Part shown: positions 1-59,027 of the stretch, piece after piece
Position numbering within the stretch: position 1 is the first letter of the stretch
Layout: each line of letters starts with the position of its first letter
NCBI GenBank assembly: GCA_009780575.1
Contig: WQZU01000003.1
Location: forward strand, 1,940-65,939
Length of the DNA: 64,000 nucleotides
Source of the DNA: Candidatus Methanomicula labiotermitis
GTDB taxonomy: Archaea > Thermoplasmatota > Thermoplasmata > Methanomassiliicoccales > Methanomethylophilaceae
Direction: 5' to 3'
Notes under the pieces: generated by a model
Seen by the model: the letters and a program-made list of their open reading frames with translations, nothing else
Database searches by the model: none
What the model was told of the DNA's origin: nothing
Position numbers and translations under genes: made by a program

Positions 1-1327
1 GGCCGCCGACCAGTTCCCTGTTTTTGTACAGCCAGGTTATCCGGTCAATTGCATATTTGATCTGGCTCATTGTGAAGACCCGTCTCGGCAACGCCAGTCT
101 TAGCAGCTCTATTGCTGCATAACACTCCGTACCGTCGGGATTCCGTTCCTCTGCCATAGTACCGCGTTCCATTCCTCTGATGCCTGACACGATGTACAAT
201 GCGGAGGACAGACTCGCCGCCTGGAAATCCTCATCCTTCAGGTGAGACAGGAACGCCTTTGCGTCCACGTGGCAGCCCAGGCCGCCCGGGGGCGTCACAA
301 CGGGCACACCCTCCTTTCTCAGTTCTTCGACCATATACTTGATAAATTGCGGACCTTGCGAGATCACATCGAAATCAGAAACTTCCCTTATGCCGACCGC
401 GATCGCTTCCATCTCCTTGTCACTCATACCGCCGTAGGTAAGGAAACCTTCGAACAGAGGAACAAGTTCCCGAAGCTGTTCAAAGATCCTGTCATCGTCA
501 AGACACATCCCTCCGCCTTTGGCGCACCCGAACTTCCGTGCCGAAAAGTAGATTATGTCAACGTTGGCAGCCACTTCGTTACAGATGTCGATTATCGCCT
601 TGTCCTTGCAGCTTTCCTCACGCATCTTCATGAAGTAAAGATTATCCTGAAGCAGACTCGTGTCAAGCATAAGCGGAACTCCGTATTTTTTGCACAGAGC
701 GTGAGTCTCCTTTATGTTCTGAATCGATATCGGCTGACCGCCGATAAGGTTTGTTCCCGCTTCAAGCCGTACAAAAGGTATCCTCTTTCCGAACTCTTCG
801 AACGCTTTCTTCAGTTTCACGATGTCTATGTTCCCTTTGAAAAGACAATCCGATTCCGGTTTGAGCGCTTCATCAACCGGAATTTCCAAAATATCTCCTC
901 CTCGTAAGCGGATATGCGCTTTCGTTGTAGTGAAGTGATAATTCATCGGAATGATGTCCCCTTCTTTCACAAGGACCCGTGATAAAAGATGTTCACACGC
1001 TCTGCCCTGGTGTGCGGGCAGAAAGTACTTTTTCTTGAAAACCTTCTTGAGTTCCGCCTCAAGTCTGTAAAAACTCTCGCTGCCCGCATAGCAGTCATCA
1101 GCCGTCAGCATAGCAGCCTGCTGGAGGTTGCTCATTGCGTTGACGCCGCTGTCCGTCAGCATGTCCAGGAACACATCGCGGTTCTTCAGCAGAAAGGTAT
1201 TGTTGCCCGCTTCTTCGATCGCCCGAAGCCTTTGATCCACCGACTTCAATTCCAATTTCTGTACGATTTTGACTTTGTGCATCTCAAGCGGCAACTCTTC
1301 ACCGTTTTGCAATCTGATCTTGCTCAA
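1..1327 (-). CDS. tnaA: Tryptophanase / tyrosine phenol-lyase family (beta-eliminating PLP lyase); C-terminus cut by the window edge
   Basis: Absent from the ORF track because its stop lies left of position 1. My minus-strand translation from TTG at 1327 reads SKIRLQNGEELPLEMHKVKIVQKLELKSVDQRLRAIEEAGNNTFLLKNRDVFLDMLTDSGVNAMS...RLEAGTNLIGGQPIS...FSARKFGCAKGGGM...LRLALPRRVFT. This is collinear with tryptophanase/TPL, including the PLP-lysine context. The plus-strand ORFs 242..907 and 989..1348 are its antisense shadows. I cannot separate tryptophanase from TPL by eye. Confidence 0.75.
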   Translation of the reverse strand, partial: MSKIRLQNGEELPLEMHKVKIVQKLELKSVDQRLRAIEEAGNNTFLLKNRDVFLDMLTDSGVNAMSNLQQAAMLTADDCYAGSESFYRLEAELKKVFKKKYFLPAHQGRACEHLLSRVLVKEGDIIPMNYHFTTTKAHIRLRGGDILEIPVDEALKPESDCLFKGNIDIVKLKKAFEEFGKRIPFVRLEAGTNLIGGQPISIQNIKETHALCKKYGVPLMLDTSLLQDNLYFMKMREESCKDKAIIDICNEVAANVDIIYFSARKFGCAKGGGMCLDDDRIFEQLRELVPLFEGFLTYGGMSDKEMEAIAVGIREVSDFDVISQGPQFIKYMVEELRKEGVPVVTPPGGLGCHVDAKAFLSHLKDEDFQAASLSSALYIVSGIRGMERGTMAEERNPDGTECYAAIELLRLALPRRVFTMSQIKYAIDRITWLYKNRELVGG

Positions 1328-3275: not shown

Positions 3276-3333
3276 CACCCGCCGAACCAGCAATCTTTTC
3301 AACCGAAGGAGAGTCCACAGCTGTTCTGGATAG

Positions 3334-3407
3334 CGGGTCTGAAGGGATTCGAACCCTTGGCCGATCGGTTAAGAGCCGATCGCTCTACCTAGCTGAGCTA
3401 CAGACCC
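3334..3407 (-). tRNA. tRNA-Lys (anticodon CUU)
   Basis: The minus strand reads GGGTCTGTAGCTCAGCTAGGTAGAGCGATCGGCTCTTAACCGATCGGCCAAGGGTTCGAATCCCTTCAGACCCG. It folds as a cloverleaf with a 7-bp acceptor stem, anticodon arm ATCGG/CTCTTAA/CCGAT and T arm AAGGG/TTCGAAT/CCCTT. CCA is not encoded. Confidence 0.9.
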
Positions 3408-15594: not shown

Positions 15595-16995
15595 ATCATA
15601 GAAAAGGATAAAAATTTCAGCGAATGGTATAACGACATAGTTGAGAAGGCCAACCTTTCGGACAAAAGATATCCGATCAAAGGTATGAACGTCTGGACTC
15701 CGTACGGCTGGAAGATAATGAGGCATGTGGACACATACATACGCAAAGAATTGGATTCAACCGGACACGATGAAGTGTACTTCCCGCTACTTATTCCGGA
15801 GACCGAGTTCAACAAGGAAAAGGAACACATCAAAGGTTTCGATTCCGAAGTTTATTGGGTAACGCATGCGGGTCTGAATGAATTGGACGTCCGTCTCGTT
15901 GTAAGGCCGACAAGCGAGACCGCGATGTATCCGATGTTCTCACTATGGGTGCGTTCGCACACAGACCTTCCGCTGAAGACGTATCAGATCGTGAACACAT
16001 TCAGATACGAGACGAAGCAGACCAGACCATTCATCAGAGTGAGGGAGATTCACTTCTTTGAGTCGCACACATGTCACGCGTCCGAAGAAGATGCGCAGGA
16101 ACAGATCGAGGAAGACATCGTGATACTTGAAAACATAATGAAGCAGCTATGCATCCCGTATTCATTGTTCGTGCGCACGGAATGGGATAAATTCCCGGGA
16201 GCGCATTACACCGTCGGTCTCGACACAGTGATGCCCAACGGCAGGATGCTGCAGATCGGTTCGATACATCATTACCGAACCAATTTTTCGATACCTTACA
16301 ACATAACTTATGAGGACGCGGACGGTAAGCACGAACATGTTCATCAGACCACATACGGCATGTCGGAAAGGCTTGTCGGTGCGATGATAGGCGTGCACGG
16401 CGATGACAAAGGATTGATACTCCCGCCGCCGGTGGCACCGTTCCAAACGGTCATAATACCGATAATCTCCAAGGGCAACGCAGATCTGATAATGAAGGAA
16501 GCAGAAAAGATAAAGGATATGCTAATCTCCGCCGGAATACGGACAAAGCTCGACGACCGTGACGAAAGACCGGGAAGCAAATTCTTTGACTGGGAGATAA
16601 AAGGTGTGCCGCTCAGAATTGAGCTGGGCATTAAGGACATTGAGAACCGTGCGATCACTTTCGCGAGACGTGACAACGGAGAAAAAGGAACGATATCGTC
16701 GGAAGACGTCGTTCCCGGGGTCAATATGATCCTGGAGGCGATATGCGAGAACATGTTCAATAGGGCGTGGGAAAGACAAAGGGCGAACGTTGTCACCATA
16801 GATTCATTGAAAGTCGTTCCGGAGATGACGCTGAGGTTCGGCTGGTGCGGTTCAGAGGAATGCGGACGCAGGTTCGAAGAGGAGAACGATCTCAAATTGC
16901 TAGGAACTCCTTATGTTCCGGAAGAATTCAGCGGCAAATGCATAATCTGCGGGAAGGAAACGGACAAAGCGGCATATGCCGCCAGGTCGATGTGA
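15595..16995 (+). CDS. proS: Prolyl-tRNA synthetase (archaeal type); start codon unresolved
   Basis: Class II core (RPTSETAMYPMF, FRYETKQTRPFIRVREI). The first ATG is 15685. The conserved N-terminus NFSEWYNDIVEKANLSDKRYPIKG is encoded in frame upstream, between the in-frame TGA at 15583 and that ATG, with no ATG/GTG/TTG. ATC 15595 or ATA 15598 are the only near-cognate options. Confidence 0.85.
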   Translation: MIEKDKNFSEWYNDIVEKANLSDKRYPIKGMNVWTPYGWKIMRHVDTYIRKELDSTGHDEVYFPLLIPETEFNKEKEHIKGFDSEVYWVTHAGLNELDVRLVVRPTSETAMYPMFSLWVRSHTDLPLKTYQIVNTFRYETKQTRPFIRVREIHFFESHTCHASEEDAQEQIEEDIVILENIMKQLCIPYSLFVRTEWDKFPGAHYTVGLDTVMPNGRMLQIGSIHHYRTNFSIPYNITYEDADGKHEHVHQTTYGMSERLVGAMIGVHGDDKGLILPPPVAPFQTVIIPIISKGNADLIMKEAEKIKDMLISAGIRTKLDDRDERPGSKFFDWEIKGVPLRIELGIKDIENRAITFARRDNGEKGTISSEDVVPGVNMILEAICENMFNRAWERQRANVVTIDSLKVVPEMTLRFGWCGSEECGRRFEEENDLKLLGTPYVPEEFSGKCIICGKETDKAAYAARSM

Positions 16996-20050: not shown

Positions 20051-20083
20051 AAAGGAAATAAAAAGAAACGGCGGAAGCCGTTT
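20051..20083 (-). terminator. Hairpin plus T-rich tract at the end of 20082..21278
   Basis: The minus strand reads AAACGGC-TTCC-GCCGTTT followed by CTTTTTATTTCCTTT. The stem overlaps the TAA stop. Confidence 0.4.
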
Positions 20084-21278
20084 ATTTACCCGCGATGAGC
20101 CTTACTCCCTCCACTCCGAGCAACGCAAACAATGCGAGGACGGAGACAGAAACATCCGACCCGGGTCCGCTTATCAGCATGTGCGTTCCGACTATCACCA
20201 GCATGAAGAGATAGAACGCAGCGGTCAGCATCTTCTCTTTCTTCCAGTCGGATATTATGATGCAGATGAGTGCAGCCACACCGAATATAAGCGCAACCGT
20301 TTCCATGCATTCGCTCACCTCTCCGGTGGTAAGGAACAATATCCCTGCTATGAGGAGTATGATCCCAATGATCGTTACGAATACTCCGGCGGAAGACCGT
20401 AGATATCCGCGCTGCATCGTTGTCACTCCGGCGCCGTACATTATTGCGAACGCGCCTCCGGCAAGGCATCCTATGGAGAAGTACAGTTTAACATCCTCTG
20501 CGGACGAAAGTCCTAGCATATAGACGGGATCGACATTGAACGCCCATGACGGGTCGGACAGCATTGCAAACAGCCAGAACGATAAGAACATGAGGGCCGA
20601 AAGTATTCCGGCGAAACCTAAGGCGACCCTGTGCCGTTCCGCTATGCCCTTACCGTTGGGTGTTGCCCTCTTGACACCGCCGCGGTACATGAACTTCGCA
20701 CTCTGCAGGAAGAACAGCAGGAGAAGCACAACTGCCGCCGCAGTCTCAACGCCGGGCATACCGGACAGGAACCCGATGTCCGTTCCCTCGTGGACGAGCA
20801 CATAATATAATGCCGCAACAAATGATACGGACATAAACGCGAACGTTGCCAATTTCCTCATTTCATCGGACCAGTCCCTCATCGCAAGGAGCAGAAGGCA
20901 CACCATACCCGCACCGAACGCCGCATAGGCTATGTAAAGGTGCAAAGAACCAGAATCCGATGTGAAAACACCGATCAGCGCGATCGAAACACCGGCCGCG
21001 ACAGCGACTACCCCGGCGACCGCATCCAGTTTATTCCTCTTCGAAGTAAGGATCGCGGCACCGCAGATCGCGAACAATATACCTGCGATCAAACAGCCTC
21101 CGTTGAAGAACATCCGTGCATACTCGTAATCCGAGACACCAAGGTCGCTGAGATAGTTCGCGCCGAATATCCATGCAGTATCGGACATCGCGGCGATGAA
21201 CCAACAAAGCGCAAAGACAACCGTCGCGGACAATGCCGATGCTCCAATCAAGAGATTCCGTTCTTTCATGAGTTCCAT
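20082..21278 (-). CDS. Polytopic membrane protein with internal tandem duplication (DUF998-like halves)
   Basis: Two homologous halves: FALCWFIAAMSDTAWIFGANYLSDLGVS...FFNGGCLIAGILFAICGAA versus FLSFWLFAMLSDPSWAFNVDPVYMLGLS...YFSIGCLAGGAFAIMYGAG. Confidence 0.6.
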   Translation of the reverse strand: MELMKERNLLIGASALSATVVFALCWFIAAMSDTAWIFGANYLSDLGVSDYEYARMFFNGGCLIAGILFAICGAAILTSKRNKLDAVAGVVAVAAGVSIALIGVFTSDSGSLHLYIAYAAFGAGMVCLLLLAMRDWSDEMRKLATFAFMSVSFVAALYYVLVHEGTDIGFLSGMPGVETAAAVVLLLLFFLQSAKFMYRGGVKRATPNGKGIAERHRVALGFAGILSALMFLSFWLFAMLSDPSWAFNVDPVYMLGLSSAEDVKLYFSIGCLAGGAFAIMYGAGVTTMQRGYLRSSAGVFVTIIGIILLIAGILFLTTGEVSECMETVALIFGVAALICIIISDWKKEKMLTAAFYLFMLVIVGTHMLISGPGSDVSVSVLALFALLGVEGVRLIAGK

Positions 21279-21343
21279 ATGAATTTCCCCTGCCCCGCAC
21301 CATTATGCGAGTCAATTATGTTCTCCTGTTACGATTTAGCAGT

Positions 21344-21352
21344 ATATTAATT
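21344..21352. repeat. 9-nt direct repeat, downstream copy (atattaatt on plus, AATTAATAT on minus)
   Basis: Identical 9-mer at 22144..22152, exactly 800 nt away. This copy also looks like the TATA element for the 21278 gene. Confidence 0.6.
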
Positions 21353-21404
21353 GATTTACACGCGCAACGCCCGTTCAGCCACGCAGCCACGCGTGAACTT
21401 AGTC

Positions 21405-21434
21405 GAGTGGGAGAGGGCATCACCCTCTCCCCTC
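21405..21434 (-). ncRNA. Group II intron domain VI with candidate branch-point A (21408)
   Basis: GAG-GGGAGAGGG-UGAUG-CCCUCUCCC-A-CUC. The bulged A is the 7th nucleotide from the proposed 3' end (..ACUCGAC). Confidence 0.75.
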
Positions 21435-21437
21435 TTG

Positions 21438-21471
21438 GAACGCACCGTGCGACTTTCACCGCAGTACGCTC
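21438..21471 (-). ncRNA. Group II intron domain V
   Basis: GAGCGUACUGCGGUGAAAGUCGCACGGUGCGUUC: AGC triad, lower helix GAGCGUAC/GUGCGUUC, CG bulge, upper helix UGCGGU/GUCGCA, GAAA tetraloop. Confidence 0.9.
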
Positions 21472-22143
21472 GAGCCTCAGATAACCGTGTTTTTCACGGC
21501 GGTTCTGACGGAATACCGTCGCTCCCTTTGCGTTTCGGGTCCGCAATCTGTTAACGTGACCGTCGGCGGTGTCCTCGCGTCCTGTATTCACATTCTTCGT
21601 AGTTGGCGCATCCGCCTTCACAGTTTTGCTTCCTTTCCCGCAATCCAAGACTTGGAACAAGTCGGCCGTCTTTCGACGCGACACATAATGTCTATCCTGG
21701 CAGTTACAGTCAGGCATTCGCTTTTTGTTCCATCCTCTGCCCTCTGTCCAAGGAGGACATAGGGTTTACCAAGTTCCGAACAAAGGATAATACAGAAGGG
21801 TTAGGTGCCGTCATTACGCCGGGGGCCGTTGTGTCCGTCCGCAGAGAAGCACATGCACACCTCTCCGCCGACCCCATCCTTTTTTTTCGGTCATGCGTCC
21901 ACCGGTTCCAACCGGCTCATCTGTGTTTTCGCACTTACCTTTAACGACGCTTAGACGATTCACGTTTGTTCACCATACCTACCTTACCCTTGCACCTCTT
22001 CGGCATCACAGCACACTCTGAGGTTCGTTGTCACGGGAGCTTCGCACCCAGCCGTTACCGGCTACGCACGTCCCGTTAGGGTTACAACGGACGAATGTTG
22101 CAGTCTTTCGACAATCCTTTATTCAGCTTCTTGTCGCACACAC

Positions 22144-22152
22144 ATATTAATT
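22144..22152. repeat. 9-nt direct repeat, upstream copy
   Basis: atattaatt on plus (AATTAATAT on minus), 4 nt upstream of the intron GUGCG. Partner copy at 21344..21352. Confidence 0.6.
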
Positions 22153-22235
22153 TCAGTCAGGTTTATATGAAGAACCTCTTATTCCGTTGCTTCAAATCGA
22201 TCCGTTCCTGAACGGCAGCCGATGGGAAAGGCTTA

Positions 22236-23036
22236 TTGCGCACACGGCGTTCATCTCGCGGAAGTGAACAATTGAAGAACATTTATTTCGTCGGCACCGC
22301 GGGAAGCGGAAAGAGTTCTCTGGTTCAGTCATACAAGGAATGGCTCGATCTCAGCGGCATAGATGCGATAACGGTCAACCTTGATCCCGGTGCGGACGCC
22401 GTTCCGTACGTTGCGGATGTGGACATACGCGAATGGATCGACCTGCATGACGTCATGGACGAATACTCGCTTGGCCCCAACGGTGCGCAGATCGTATGTG
22501 CGGACCTCATGGCAATGAACATCGAGAAACTGACGGATGCGCTGGATTCGTTCAAAACAAATTATGCTCTCATAGACACTCCCGGCCAGCTGGAACTTTT
22601 CGCATTCAGGAAGTCTTCCAATGTGATGATCGACGCACTCGGTAAAGAAAGGTCAATGACGGTGTTCCTCGCCGATCCGATACTGTGCAGGACATCCAAC
22701 GGATTCATATCCAGTATGATGCTCTCAACGATAGCCCAGTTCCGTCTTCGGATGCCCATGATCACCGCACTATCGAAATCGGATATCCTCGAGGAGGATG
22801 AACTCAACAAGGTGATGTCATGGTTCTCAGACCCGGATGCGCTGTACGCGGACATACTGGACAACGACAAGGACCCGCAGACGGTCGTGGGCATGGAACT
22901 GTTCAAGGCAATGGAAAACATAGGGACATTCGGAGACACCAGAGCGGTGTCCTCGAAAATGTCATTCGGAATGGAAGAACTGTACGGAGCGGCCCAGCAA
23001 TGTTTCTTCGGAGGAGACGACGCCGAGGTCAACTGA
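22236..23036 (+). CDS. GPN-loop GTPase
   Basis: P-loop FVGTAGSGKSS and GPN motif YSLGPNGAQI. The true start is more likely the in-frame TTG at 22272 (MKNIYFVGTAGSGKS). Confidence 0.8.
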   Translation: MRTRRSSRGSEQLKNIYFVGTAGSGKSSLVQSYKEWLDLSGIDAITVNLDPGADAVPYVADVDIREWIDLHDVMDEYSLGPNGAQIVCADLMAMNIEKLTDALDSFKTNYALIDTPGQLELFAFRKSSNVMIDALGKERSMTVFLADPILCRTSNGFISSMMLSTIAQFRLRMPMITALSKSDILEEDELNKVMSWFSDPDALYADILDNDKDPQTVVGMELFKAMENIGTFGDTRAVSSKMSFGMEELYGAAQQCFFGGDDAEVN

Positions 23037-58557: not shown

Positions 58558-58762
58558 ATTATCTCGGGCACAGTAGGCGAAACAATGATATAAACATTAC
58601 AAAGGCCGAGTAAGTTAACTTATGCTGTGTTCCGTCAGCCGTTACGATGCGTTTTCGGGAACGTTGAATCTTATAAGAATGAGTGCACAATTCAATGATA
58701 TATGTTCTTTCAGCCGGCATCAGGTACGAAACCCACGGAACCAACGAAACAGATGCTGGCAG

Positions 58763-58834
58763 TGCGACTGCCGGGATTCGAACCCGGGTTAGAGGCTTGG
58801 GAAGCCACTGTCCTGACCGCTAGACTACAGTCGC
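58763..58834 (-). tRNA. tRNA-Gly (anticodon CCC)
   Basis: The minus strand reads GCGACTGTAGTCTAGCGGTCAGGACAGTGGCTTCCCAAGCCTCTAACCCGGGTTCGAATCCCGGCAGTCGCA. It folds as a cloverleaf with C2:G71, G3:C70 and A73. One U-U mismatch in the anticodon stem. CCA not encoded. Confidence 0.8.
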
Positions 58835-58951: not shown

Positions 58952-59027
58952 TGGTGGGCTCGGCCGGATTTGAACCGGCGATCTCTTCCATGTCAAGGAA
59001 ACGTCATAACCCCTAGACCACGAGCCC
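58952..59027 (-). tRNA. tRNA-Val (anticodon GAC), CCA encoded
   Basis: The minus strand reads GGGCTCGTGGTCTAGGGGTTATGACGTTTCCTTGACATGGAAGAGATCGCCGGTTCAAATCCGGCCGAGCCCACCA. Confidence 0.88.

Follow-up and report, generated by a model that had tools for sequence, protein, structure and literature searches.

An ORF-less group IIB intron between two divergent genes of a Thermoplasmatota methanogen

The DNA analysed here is a 64-kb stretch, called the window, from a gut-type methanogen of the Methanomassiliicoccaceae, in which a DUF998 membrane-protein gene and a GPN-loop GTPase gene are transcribed divergently (Table 1). The same divergent pair was found in seven related Methanomassiliicoccaceae genomes, where the spacer is 96-182 bp long and contains neither an Rfam match nor an intron. 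In the window the spacer is 993 bp long, which corresponds to 255 bp plus a 738-nt intron. The intron sits between two conserved promoter-like blocks, the spacing of which it quadruples, and it interrupts no gene. The CGTGTAAATCAATTAATATACTGC block in front of the DUF998 gene aligns with CGTGAAAAGCATTAATAYAGCG in four relatives, which suggests that it serves as a promoter. No intron-free allele was found in the same species, and the insertion was identical in all four samples. Since the flanking DNA is just as invariant (99.995-100% identity across samples), this identity reflects a single clonal strain. The flanks were also compared with the retrieved loci and with the remaining window sequence; as no similarity emerged, an origin of the flanks from a further intron or mobile element was rejected.

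The original prediction was that the minus strand between 22139 and 21402 is an ORF-less group II intron with domains V and VI and a branch-point A. All strings quoted in support of it, including GUGCGAC at 22139, were found at the given minus-strand coordinates in a sequence check, and the prediction itself is now backed by Rfam matches, covariation and the intron-free orthologous sites. Both Rfam searches that had been proposed as a check, with D1-D4 and D5-D6 models, gave matches above the gathering score: RF02012 (group-II-D1D4-7) at 22102..21931 with 70.7 bits (gathering 34, E 1.7e-12) and RF00029 (Intron_gpII) at 21473..21402 with 43.6 bits (gathering 40, E 2.9e-5). The two matches are on one strand and in the correct order, and the RF00029 match stops exactly at the predicted 3' end. 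An nhmmer profile of D1 matched the intron with 256 bits, and the minimum free energy of the 738 nt was -267.8 kcal/mol (z = -4.8 relative to shuffles). In the numbering used below, intron nt n is window position 22140-n. The first 16 nt are the same as the starts of two relatives (L111 and L106) and differ at one position from those of two others (L042/L118). The 3' terminus is ...GAC (21404..21402); the GUGYG and AY termini align with those of 12-27 family introns, and the 3' RAC end was aligned in 12 introns. It had also been stated that no credible protein fills the gap, and this proved correct: gene prediction on independent assemblies placed no gene in the spacer, and the 133-aa ORF at 21316..21717 of the minus strand, which overlaps D3-D6, has no Pfam match in its intron-internal 106 aa.

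These results show that the 738 nt are a true group II intron without an ORF, and they establish its boundaries and domain architecture. The reading that there is no intron at all, only a fortuitous similarity or an error of assembly, can draw on the modest RF00029 score and on nothing else. It is effectively refuted by the two independent Rfam matches and the D1 profile match, by compensatory changes throughout the structure (see below) and by the recovery of the same intron sequence from four independent assemblies (JGI 3300010369, ENA ERZ27257297 and the two Logan runs SRR10512952 and SRR5215140).

Table 1. Features of the intron and of its insertion site (window positions; intron nt as defined in the text)
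Feature	Window position	Intron nt	Strand	Basis or remark
DUF998 membrane-protein gene, downstream neighbour	20082..21278		-	Same strand as intron
Promoter-like block of DUF998 gene (CGTGTAAATCAATTAATATACTGC)	21339..21362		-	Downstream of intron
IBS3, U, first base of 3' exon	21401		-	Pairs with A326
Whole intron, 738 nt	21402..22139		-	Rfam matches, starts of relatives, 3' RAC end, spacer excess
Domain VI with bulged branch-point A at 21408	21405..21434		-	RF00029; helix covaries
Domain V, 34 nt, AGC triad, 2-nt bulge, GAAA loop	21438..21471		-	RF00029, motif scan, alignment
Domain IV without ORF, 181 nt	21472..21652	488-668	-	Aligned to D4 of relatives
Putative degraded remnant of first ~40 codons of RT gene (...VNRLRTRNAKGAT...)	21517..21639		-	Start codon lost
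Domain III	21653..21732	408-487	-	Helices 19-23 covary; 24/26 pairs formed
J2/3 linker CAGAGGA	21733..21739		-	A402, A404, G405, G406 and A407 invariant in alignment A1
Domain II, truncated	21740..21764	376-400	-	Basal stem homologous to relatives
Domain I	21770..22133	7-370	-	Basal stems 7-10/367-370 and 14-26/352-364
EBS3, A326, in internal loop UAA (nt 187-189)/AAU (nt 325-327)	21814	326	-	Column complementarity
EBS1 loop of hairpin H2 (UGUGCAUGUG)	21850..21859	281-290	-	Family-wide EBS1 test
Candidate EBS1, GUGCAU	21858..21853		-	H2 loop
Hairpin H1, stem GUGCG/CGCAU	21879..21934		-	Loop motif conserved in family
EBS2 by homology, AAAGGU, junction 5' of H1	21937..21942	198-203	-	Column scan
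D1 C-stem with GUAA tetraloop	22033..22076	64-107	-	Core of RF02012 match
5' terminus GUGCG	22135..22139		-	Start invariant across family alignment
IBS1 position, AUGUGU	22140..22145		-	5' exon
GPN-loop GTPase gene, upstream neighbour, TTG start	22272..23036		+	Opposite strand
Predicted ligated exon junction, AATATGTGT/TAAGTTCAC				

Comparison with the relatives showed that the six-domain fold is maintained through compensatory change. In D1-D3, both partners are changed in 81 of the 138 pairs, compared with 31.6 in shuffled alignments (a value never reached in 500 shuffles) and 12-20 in slid controls, and 95.5% of the cells are paired across the alignment of the relatives. All 17 pairs of the D1 C-stem form in the window intron and most of them covary. 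Of 81 D1 positions that are near-invariant in the family, the window intron keeps 77 and departs at four. For D5-D6 the number of compensatory pairs was 14 of 29, with the branch-point A and the RAC end invariant in 12 introns. The ribozyme core of the window intron is as conserved as that of the RT-bearing relatives. D4 forms a stem region, and D2 is shortened. The description of the element as a complete ribozyme therefore stands for the core and for the presence of the domains, but not for D2, of which about 49 distal alignment columns are missing in the window intron only.

The 34-nt D5 motif occurs once in the window, with no occurrence expected by chance. The placement of D5 at 21471..21438 and of D6 with its bulged A at 21408, whose distance from the terminal ...GAC (21402) is seven nt, was confirmed by the RF00029 match, the covariation of D6 and the invariance of the A. 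A further proposal, according to which UAUGG (nt 163-167, 21977..21973) and CUAAG (nt 186-190, 21954..21950) form a tetraloop receptor acting as the zeta site, had to be abandoned because, in helices supported by covariation, both strings belong to one and the same strand, the 5' strand of the D-arm, with no conserved hairpin between them. The partner opposite CUAAG is U-AAU-G (nt 324-328), within the EBS3-bearing internal loop.

Statistical tests on metagenome copies were used to locate the exon-binding sites of the family. In the family-wide test for EBS1 the H2 loop scored 119.5 versus 87.7 ± 3.7, a value not reached in 2000 permutations, and a column scan gave z 8.8 for the same loop. An unbiased column scan for exon positions -16 to -6 peaked at the EBS2 position (z 9.3). 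The EBS3 column was Watson-Crick complementary to the first base of the 3' exon in 18 of 22 distinct introns (0 of 5000 permutations). All three positions were confirmed on a held-out intron, that of the cultured methanogen Methanomethylovorans hollandica, and can be reused for the prediction of target sites of D1D4-7 introns. For the window intron the predicted cognate target is ACCUUU-N-AUGCAC|U. ACACA, which had been suggested as EBS1 on account of its complementarity to the 5' exon, lies at 21926..21922 in H1, where the window intron has a 16-nt inner hairpin of its own that is specific to this copy. As a candidate for EBS1 or EBS2 the H1 loop was rejected (85 versus 86 and 102.5 versus 106.6, respectively, in the permutation tests): pairing specific to the exon was not seen for it across 23-25 introns of the family, and EBS1 maps to H2.

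At the insertion site in the window IBS3 pairs well, IBS1 weakly and IBS2 not at all. The EBS1/IBS1 duplex GUGCAU/AUGUGU would consist of three Watson-Crick and three G.U pairs, the latter adjoining the splice site, and its score is matched by 20% of random 6-mers. For AAAGGU no IBS2 partner above chance was present in the 5' exon, 58% of shuffles being as good. The missing EBS2/IBS2 pairing concerns the insertion site and not the architecture of the ribozyme. Cognate homing sites within the window were counted as well, and their numbers equalled chance expectation apart from one single site.

Group IIB introns recognize the 3' exon by IBS3-EBS3 and not by delta-delta' as in IIA (PMC4424553, PMC2882425), and it is the IBS3-EBS3 interaction that was found in this family. 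Since the family RNA also has an EBS2, it is IIB-type, and the window intron is a group IIB intron whose RNA belongs to the Rfam D1D4-7 family, which probably corresponds to the chloroplast-like (CL/IIB1) lineage. RF02012 also matches the M. hollandica intron and enterobacterial plasmid-type introns. The proteins of the relatives, which were collected by the metagenome scan with the D5 pattern, have the domain composition RVT_N+RVT_1+GIIM. Their best solved match was 6ME0_C (E 8e-148), which we take to be the TeI4h RT of Thermosynechococcus elongatus; the matches to 7UIM (1e-40), presumably a IIC RT, and to LtrA (1.7e-31), presumably a IIA RT, were far behind. TeI4h is a IIB1 intron that is closest to the CL/IIB1 intron EcI5 (PMC2882425). 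Class IIC, which comprises small ribozymes that lack EBS2 and insert directly behind a terminator hairpin, was rejected on the strength of the family's EBS2 and of RTs that resemble the 6ME0 RT much more closely than presumed IIC RTs, class IIA on that of the EBS3-IBS3 signal and the weak RT match to LtrA.

No RT motif was detected within the 64-kb window, and D4 has no Pfam match. In alignments, the D4 of the window intron corresponds to that of L111, a relative that also has no ORF, and to the D4a/SD/start region of the relatives that encode an RT. It contains a putative RT remnant, supported by tblastn matches to the RTs of two relatives (L106, E 0.056; L032, E 0.016; very small database) and by a nucleotide alignment; the similarity is statistically weak, but collinear with the D4a/start region. 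The ORF has been lost: the window copy arose by its deletion from D4, and a putative degraded N-terminal stub was left behind. L111 represents a clearer and independent case of ORF deletion (E 5e-22). Nested and tandem arrangements were seen among the D1D4-7 relatives (L081, L034 and L111).

The D5 pattern, self-BLAST and the D1 profile revealed no second copy within the window. Among the metagenome matches listed for a degenerate D5 pattern there was no near-identical copy, and neither these matches nor the 64 kb of genome contained an RT-encoding relative from the same organism. In a viral collection the D5 pattern had three matches and the D1 pattern none; 22 further matches to the 16-nt 5'-end pattern shared only this word with the intron and were taken as chance.

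Taking these observations together, we consider it probable that an ORF-deleted IIB intron, inserted ectopically into intergenic DNA by an RT acting in trans, persists in the window as a neutral and currently immobile passenger. The loss of the RT/maturase ORF goes back to an internal deletion in domain IV. Insertion into the spacer would have followed the split from relatives that are about 80% identical in the GPN GTPase, and the intron would have arrived by reverse splicing and reverse transcription, presumably with the RT of a full-length relative. The site of landing appears to be non-cognate (ectopic), because only IBS3 fits the exon-binding sites, IBS1 being rich in wobble pairs and IBS2 absent. 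Retrotransposition is expected to leave just such a signature, namely an intact core and mismatched exon-binding sites at an ectopic position between genes. The weak IBS1 and the missing IBS2 could instead be due to drift after insertion. As the intron lies upstream of the promoter-like block of the DUF998 gene and interrupts no gene, the host would not need its splicing. The ribozyme could still fold; since the present copy encodes no RT and pairs poorly with its exons, however, it is most likely neutral and immobile.

The well-preserved core also fits an element that is still under selection, i.e. still active. By analogy with TeI3, the intron might be a non-autonomous retroelement that is transcribed, spliced and mobilised by the maturase/RT of a related full-length intron in the same genome. 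The conservation of the core at the level of RT-bearing relatives, the intact D5, D6, J2/3 and EBS3:IBS3, and the retention of the D4a region, which aligns with the RT-proximal part of the relatives' D4, are compatible with this. Mobilisation in trans has been demonstrated (PMC2882425), and ORF-less bacterial introns nearly always accompany related RT-encoding introns (PMC4424553). Nevertheless, we regard present activity as rather unlikely: the window holds a single copy and no RT, the metagenome matches listed include no near-identical copy, and no co-oriented gene or evident promoter seems to lie far enough upstream to supply a 5' exon. Moreover, active TeI3 copies pair well with their exons, in contrast to the window intron with its three G.U pairs beside the splice site and its missing EBS2/IBS2 pairing.

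The position exactly between two conserved promoter-like blocks, the quadrupled spacing, the preserved core nucleotides and the identical sequence in contigs of four samples might also be explained by exaptation, i.e. by a structured RNA or DNA spacer that insulates or modulates the divergent promoters, or by a stable ncRNA, in either case independently of splicing. However, the identity across samples is that of a single clonal strain, a recent insertion explains the preservation of the core equally well, and the insertion was present in no other species examined, hence there is no sign of long-term retention. We consider exaptation highly improbable. Little more probable is that the organism has no group II RT whatsoever, in which case the window would hold a solitary ORF-less archaeal IIB intron with its core kept intact. 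If true, this would imply protein-independent or host-factor-dependent splicing, or an RNA domesticated between divergent promoters, and the intron would parallel C.te.I1 in an archaeon, though at a site outside any gene. The bacterial intron C.te.I1 of Clostridium tetani is ORF-less and solitary, its host genome having no known related RT (PMC4424553, PMC4024640). The window intron resembles it in being ORF-less and, as far as the 64 kb shows, in lacking a related RT. The two differ in that C.te.I1 lies within a coding sequence and self-splices to give mRNAs, whereas the window intron interrupts no gene.

For the preferred reading, that of an immobile ORF-deletion derivative, the closest parallel is provided by the TeI3 group IIB1 introns of T. 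elongatus, the ORF-less forms of which are ORF-deletion derivatives, mobilised in trans and mostly intergenic (PMC2882425). Like the window intron, TeI3 introns are IIB introns with the D4 ORF deleted and ORF remnants left; they are non-autonomous and are mostly intergenic or nested. A recognisable remnant of the ORF is found in both, although that of the window intron is weak (E 0.016-0.056). TeI3 has multiple copies, good EBS/IBS pairings and proven driver RTs in the genome, in contrast to the single copy within the window with its poor IBS1 and IBS2. Further differences of the window intron are the heavy degradation of the N-terminal remnant, the lack of an evident C-terminal remnant, the additional truncation of D2 and the archaeal host.

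Among archaeal methanogens, a full-length member of the family, the ltrA intron on plasmid pMETHO01 of M. hollandica (L158, 1475-3630), shares with the window intron the D1D4-7 type, the GUGCGACAAGAAGCU start and the positions of EBS1, EBS2 and EBS3. It differs in being full length with an RT, and its D1 is only about 55% identical. Both ORF-less and RT-encoding introns of Methanosarcina were reportedly described by Dai and Zimmerly in 2003 (cited in PMC4424553). ORF-less forms and intron-in-intron nesting are known for archaeal chloroplast-like introns. The window intron differs from the Methanosarcinales introns in the phylum of its host, Thermoplasmatota, and from the intron-inside-intron cases among them in its location in plain intergenic DNA.

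The view that group II introns had been described in only a few archaeal lineages, on which the original prediction based its interest in the locus, is outdated: they occur in 9% of complete archaeal genomes, Thermoplasmatota included (PMC8919778). The supplement of the same paper marks D5-D6 loci of Methanomassiliicoccales-type isolates as 'RT not detected', among them those of archaeon ISO4-H5 (NZ_CP014214, 259402..259477) and Ca. Methanomethylophilus alvus (NC_020913, 1264398..1264473). Compared by listing alone, these two loci are like the window intron in belonging to the same archaeal order and in having an Rfam D5-D6 match without a nearby RT. Because RT-less group II loci have already been catalogued in this order, the window intron is of a known sort; such elements are familiar in archaea and this one is a well-documented ordinary case. 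It leaves the knowledge of group II intron biology and of archaeal distribution unchanged. With its boundaries carefully defined and its orthologous sites free of introns, this ORF-less IIB intron is an addition to the sparse record from Thermoplasmatota methanogens.

The family extends to bacteria. A D1D4-7 intron (121 bits) is present on two plasmid-like contigs from enterobacteria (L099 and L127) and, unlike the window intron, is bacterial and full length with an RT; its D1 is 59% identical to that of the window intron, as close as any relative among the matches listed.

The scan of the entire window with Rfam at gathering thresholds returned five matches, two of which, in the correct order and on one strand, both above gathering, fell within the intron: RF02012 (group-II-D1D4-7; 22102..21931, 70.7 bits, gathering threshold 34, E 1.7e-12) and RF00029 (Intron_gpII; 21473..21402, 43.6 bits, gathering threshold 40). 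A local repeat of the scan agreed. The RF00029 match stopped exactly at the 3' terminus proposed in the original prediction, whose other landmarks were also present on the minus strand: the 5' end GUGCGAC at 22139, the 34-nt D5 GAGCGUACUGCGGUGAAAGUCGCACGGUGCGUUC at 21471..21438, and a D6-like hairpin with a lone bulged A (21408) seven nt from the terminal ...GAC at 21402. The D5 motif occurred once in the window and in none of 100 shuffles, and the fold of the 738 nt had a z of -4.8 relative to shuffles. The group II intron is confirmed, and a chance resemblance is excluded. The remaining three Rfam matches were tRNA genes on the minus strand (Lys-CUU 3333..3407, Gly-CCC 58762..58834 and Val-GAC 58952..59027).

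Relatives were collected by scanning metagenomes with a degenerate D5 pattern. Among the matches listed no near-identical copy of the window intron was found; the first 16 nt, GUGCGACAAGAAGCUG, were common to a family among these listed matches, and nearly all its members are also matched by RF02012. For an alignment of D1-D3 from seven sequences (mean column identity 71%) RNAalifold predicted 138 pairs. The proportion of paired cells was 95.5% (80.3% in shuffles), and 81 pairs changed on both sides, compared with 31.6 after shuffling (0/500) and 12-20 when partners were slid. In the D5-D6 alignment of 12 introns, for which D5 had been pre-selected by the search pattern whereas D6 was free of such selection, 14 of 29 pairs were compensatory, with no variation in the bulged A or the terminal RAC.

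Features of the window intron (domains in intron nucleotides, nt n corresponding to window position 22140-n), of its surroundings (window positions) and of related introns
Feature	Position	Strand	Size	Remark
D1	nt 7-370	minus		helices mapped from alignment
D2	nt 376-400	minus		helices mapped from alignment
J2/3	nt 401-407	minus		helices mapped from alignment
D3	nt 408-487	minus		helices mapped from alignment
D4	nt 488-668	minus		helices mapped from alignment
D5	nt 669-702	minus		helices mapped from alignment
D6	nt 706-735	minus		helices mapped from alignment
DUF998 membrane-protein gene	21278..20082	minus		intron neighbour
Promoter-like block of DUF998	21362..21339			downstream of intron 3' end; by conservation
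GPN-loop GTPase gene	22272..23036	plus		intron neighbour, TTG start
L111			862 nt	family member, ORF-less
L042, L106, L118, L034, L081, L032			about 2.1-3.2 kb	family members

Two peculiarities set the window copy apart: its distal D2 is shorter by about 49 alignment columns, and H1, the first of two successive D1 hairpins, contains an extra 16-nt hairpin. Together with a shift of H2 by one column in the alignment register, they explain most of the 27 consensus pairs that are not formed. Conservation of at least 90% across 25 other introns marks 81 positions of D1; the window copy deviates at four of them (family range 0-13), and two of these deviations are alignment artefacts of the extra hairpin. 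Given the few departures in D1 and the canonical J2/3, D3, D5 and D6, the ribozyme is, judged from its sequence, not visibly decayed; the defects of the copy are its exon fit, the missing RT and the shortened D2.

Long A-runs were seen at variable loops (about 33 A in D1 of L111, 13 A in D2 of L106, A8 at 21882..21889 of the window), which could be genuine expansions or errors of assembly. In metagenome contigs, family introns were found at another's D1/D2 junction, in another's D3, and as two copies head to tail (L081 1-221/222-2336; L034, reverse strand, 74-2651 with an inner copy from 541; L111 823-1684 with a second copy from 1685), reminiscent of reports from Methanosarcina and T. elongatus of introns homing into other introns.

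In agreement with the claim that no credible protein is encoded here, no ORF with RT motifs was found in the window, and the intron-internal 106 aa of a 133-aa ORF overlapping D3-D6 had no Pfam match. The window D4 aligns with the D4a/Shine-Dalgarno/start region of its relatives, and a degraded frame in it (...VNRLRTRNAKGAT...), missing the start codon, resembles the RVT_N start (...VNRLQTRIAKAT...; tblastn E 0.016-0.056 in a tiny database). The alignment and the degraded frame indicate that the window copy became ORF-less through deletion, as did the TeI3 introns (PMC2882425). L111 is an independent deletion derivative, with 55 N-terminal and 17 C-terminal codons left (E 5e-22).

In L106, D4 encodes a full-length protein of 508 aa with RVT_N, RVT_1 and GIIM domains and without an endonuclease domain. 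Its best solved relative was 6ME0 chain C (E 8e-148), presumably the RT of the T. elongatus TeI4h intron; the values for other RTs were 1e-40 (7UIM), 5e-27 (GsI-IIC) and 1.7e-31 (LtrA), the 7UIM and GsI-IIC entries being, we assume, class IIC enzymes. Among annotated plasmids the top match was ltrA of Methanomethylovorans hollandica pMETHO01 (54.9%, E 2e-176), with all bacterial matches behind. This ltrA locus is a 2156-nt intron starting with GUGCGACAAGAAGCU, which is matched by RF02012 and scored 211 bits on the D1 profile. The T. elongatus introns are IIB1, nearest to the CL/IIB1 intron EcI5 (PMC2882425). The RT, plasmid and RF02012 matches place the family, at the sequence level, in the chloroplast-like IIB lineage, which was known to occur in methanogens. 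In D1 the window copy shares only 53-59% identity with any family member and is thus a solitary, divergent branch. Two further contigs, L099 and L127, resemble plasmids of enterobacteria that carry an EcI5-like intron: sok antitoxin RNA matches (89-94 bits) lie beside a D1D4-7 intron of about 121 bits, whose EBS1 GCGCAC fits the exon GUGCGC/GUGCGU.

The intron lies between divergently transcribed DUF998 and GPN-loop GTPase genes. In a species-representative collection the nearest genomes were Methanomassiliicoccaceae MAGs (GTPase identity 79-81%; 57-60% for Methanogranum and UBA328). The arrangement is kept in seven of seven related genomes, with spacers of 96-182 bp, none of which contained an Rfam match; the window spacer measures 993 bp, or 255 bp once the 738-nt element is subtracted. 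These short, Rfam-empty orthologous spacers therefore represent intron-free sites, and the insertion is lineage-specific. The four closest relatives share a conserved promoter-like block, CGTGAAAAGCATTAATAYAGCG, 5' of DUF998. Because this block is, in the window, downstream of the intron 3' end, the intron is predicted to sit between two divergent promoter regions, outside any gene or leader. Spacer, intron and flanking DNA were base-for-base identical in contigs of four independent samples, which shows one clonal strain and is uninformative on constraint. Exaptation of the copy as a spacer or non-coding RNA, for which positive support is nil, is very improbable.

Exon recognition was analysed with 23-27 distinct family introns extracted with their exons. 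The H2 loop pairs with the last six 5'-exon bases (summed score 119.5, compared with 87.7 ± 3.7 for permuted exons; 0/2000), several of the duplexes being perfect 6 bp, and unbiased scans of all D1 columns recovered this loop as EBS1 (z 8.8) and the junction directly 5' of H1 as EBS2 (z 9.3). Scanning against the first 3'-exon base identified EBS3 as one column, the middle base on the 3' strand of an internal loop facing ...UAAG..., Watson-Crick in 18 of 22 introns (0/5000 permutations); we take this loop to be the 'coordination loop' of IIB introns. The M. hollandica intron, left out when these positions were derived, fits all three (UUAUUA/UAAUAG, AAUACA/UGUAUA and U:A). The H1 loop gave no signal as EBS1 (85 vs 86), nor with exon positions -16 to -7. 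The ACACA/UGUGU duplex of the original prediction is a real string match (3.6% by chance), but lies in this non-homologous H1 loop and cannot stand as EBS1. Nor does the proposed zeta receptor hold: the geometry of an 11-nt receptor is absent, CUAAG belongs to the EBS3-bearing loop, since the EBS3 column faces ...UAAG..., and UAUGG lies 20 nt upstream on the same strand with its GG paired to CACC (nt 333-336).

In the window copy A326 (21814), the EBS3 base, pairs with U+1 (21401). EBS1 GUGCAU (21858..21853) forms three Watson-Crick and three G.U pairs with AUGUGU, which 20% of random 6-mers equal, and for EBS2 AAAGGU (21942..21937) no partner better than chance was found in the 5' exon. We consider it likely that the window copy is a IIB intron made non-autonomous by deletion of its ORF, and that it entered a non-cognate site between genes through reverse splicing and reverse transcription. 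At that time it would have needed an RT in trans. The insertion interrupts nothing at its present site, and the copy, which cannot move by itself, is probably spliced inefficiently, if at all. According to the main rival explanation, an RT gene elsewhere in the genome still provides for its splicing and mobility; the intact ribozyme core speaks for this, but the poor exon pairing and the single copy make it rather unlikely.

Archaeal group II introns, ORF-less as well as RT-encoding, were already on record in 2003 (cited in PMC4424553), and archaea harbour the CL, D and E lineages. The presumed rarity of such introns in archaea, mainly Methanosarcina, is contradicted by a 2022 survey, which found them in 9% of the complete genomes of archaea (15% for Thermoplasmatota) and in whose supplement D5-D6 loci of archaeon ISO4-H5 and Ca. 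Methanomethylophilus alvus are entered as 'RT not detected' (PMC8919778). The window copy therefore belongs to a known kind, and is of mild interest for its clean empty-site comparison, ectopic-insertion signature and isolated phylogenetic position.

An unoccupied site at 15824..15837 (minus strand), antisense within a prolyl-tRNA synthetase ORF (15685..16995, plus), reads ACCTTT-G-ATGTGT-T: a perfect complement of the predicted EBS2, the 1-nt spacer of the family, and IBS1 and IBS3 identical to those of the real insertion site. About 0.002 exact matches per 64 kb are expected for this pattern, which was, however, put together after the match had been seen.

The TTG start of the GTPase gene aligns with ATG starts in the four closest relatives, which have a GGAAG Shine-Dalgarno-like motif there. 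Without the intron, the spacer holds about 75 bp more than those of the closest relatives; this DNA (22140..22230 and 21363..21401) does not align to them, contains a small hairpin, CCGTTCAGGAACGG, and had no similarity to any of the fetched loci. The 9-mer AATTAATAT occurs twice, at 22144..22152 (minus strand), 5-13 nt upstream of the intron 5' end, and at 21344..21352, inside the DUF998 promoter-like block and 50 nt downstream of the intron 3' end. Either an AT-rich coincidence, for which a crude estimate gives roughly 6%, or duplication of a TATA-like element could explain the pair; transcription initiated at the upstream copy would start within the intron.
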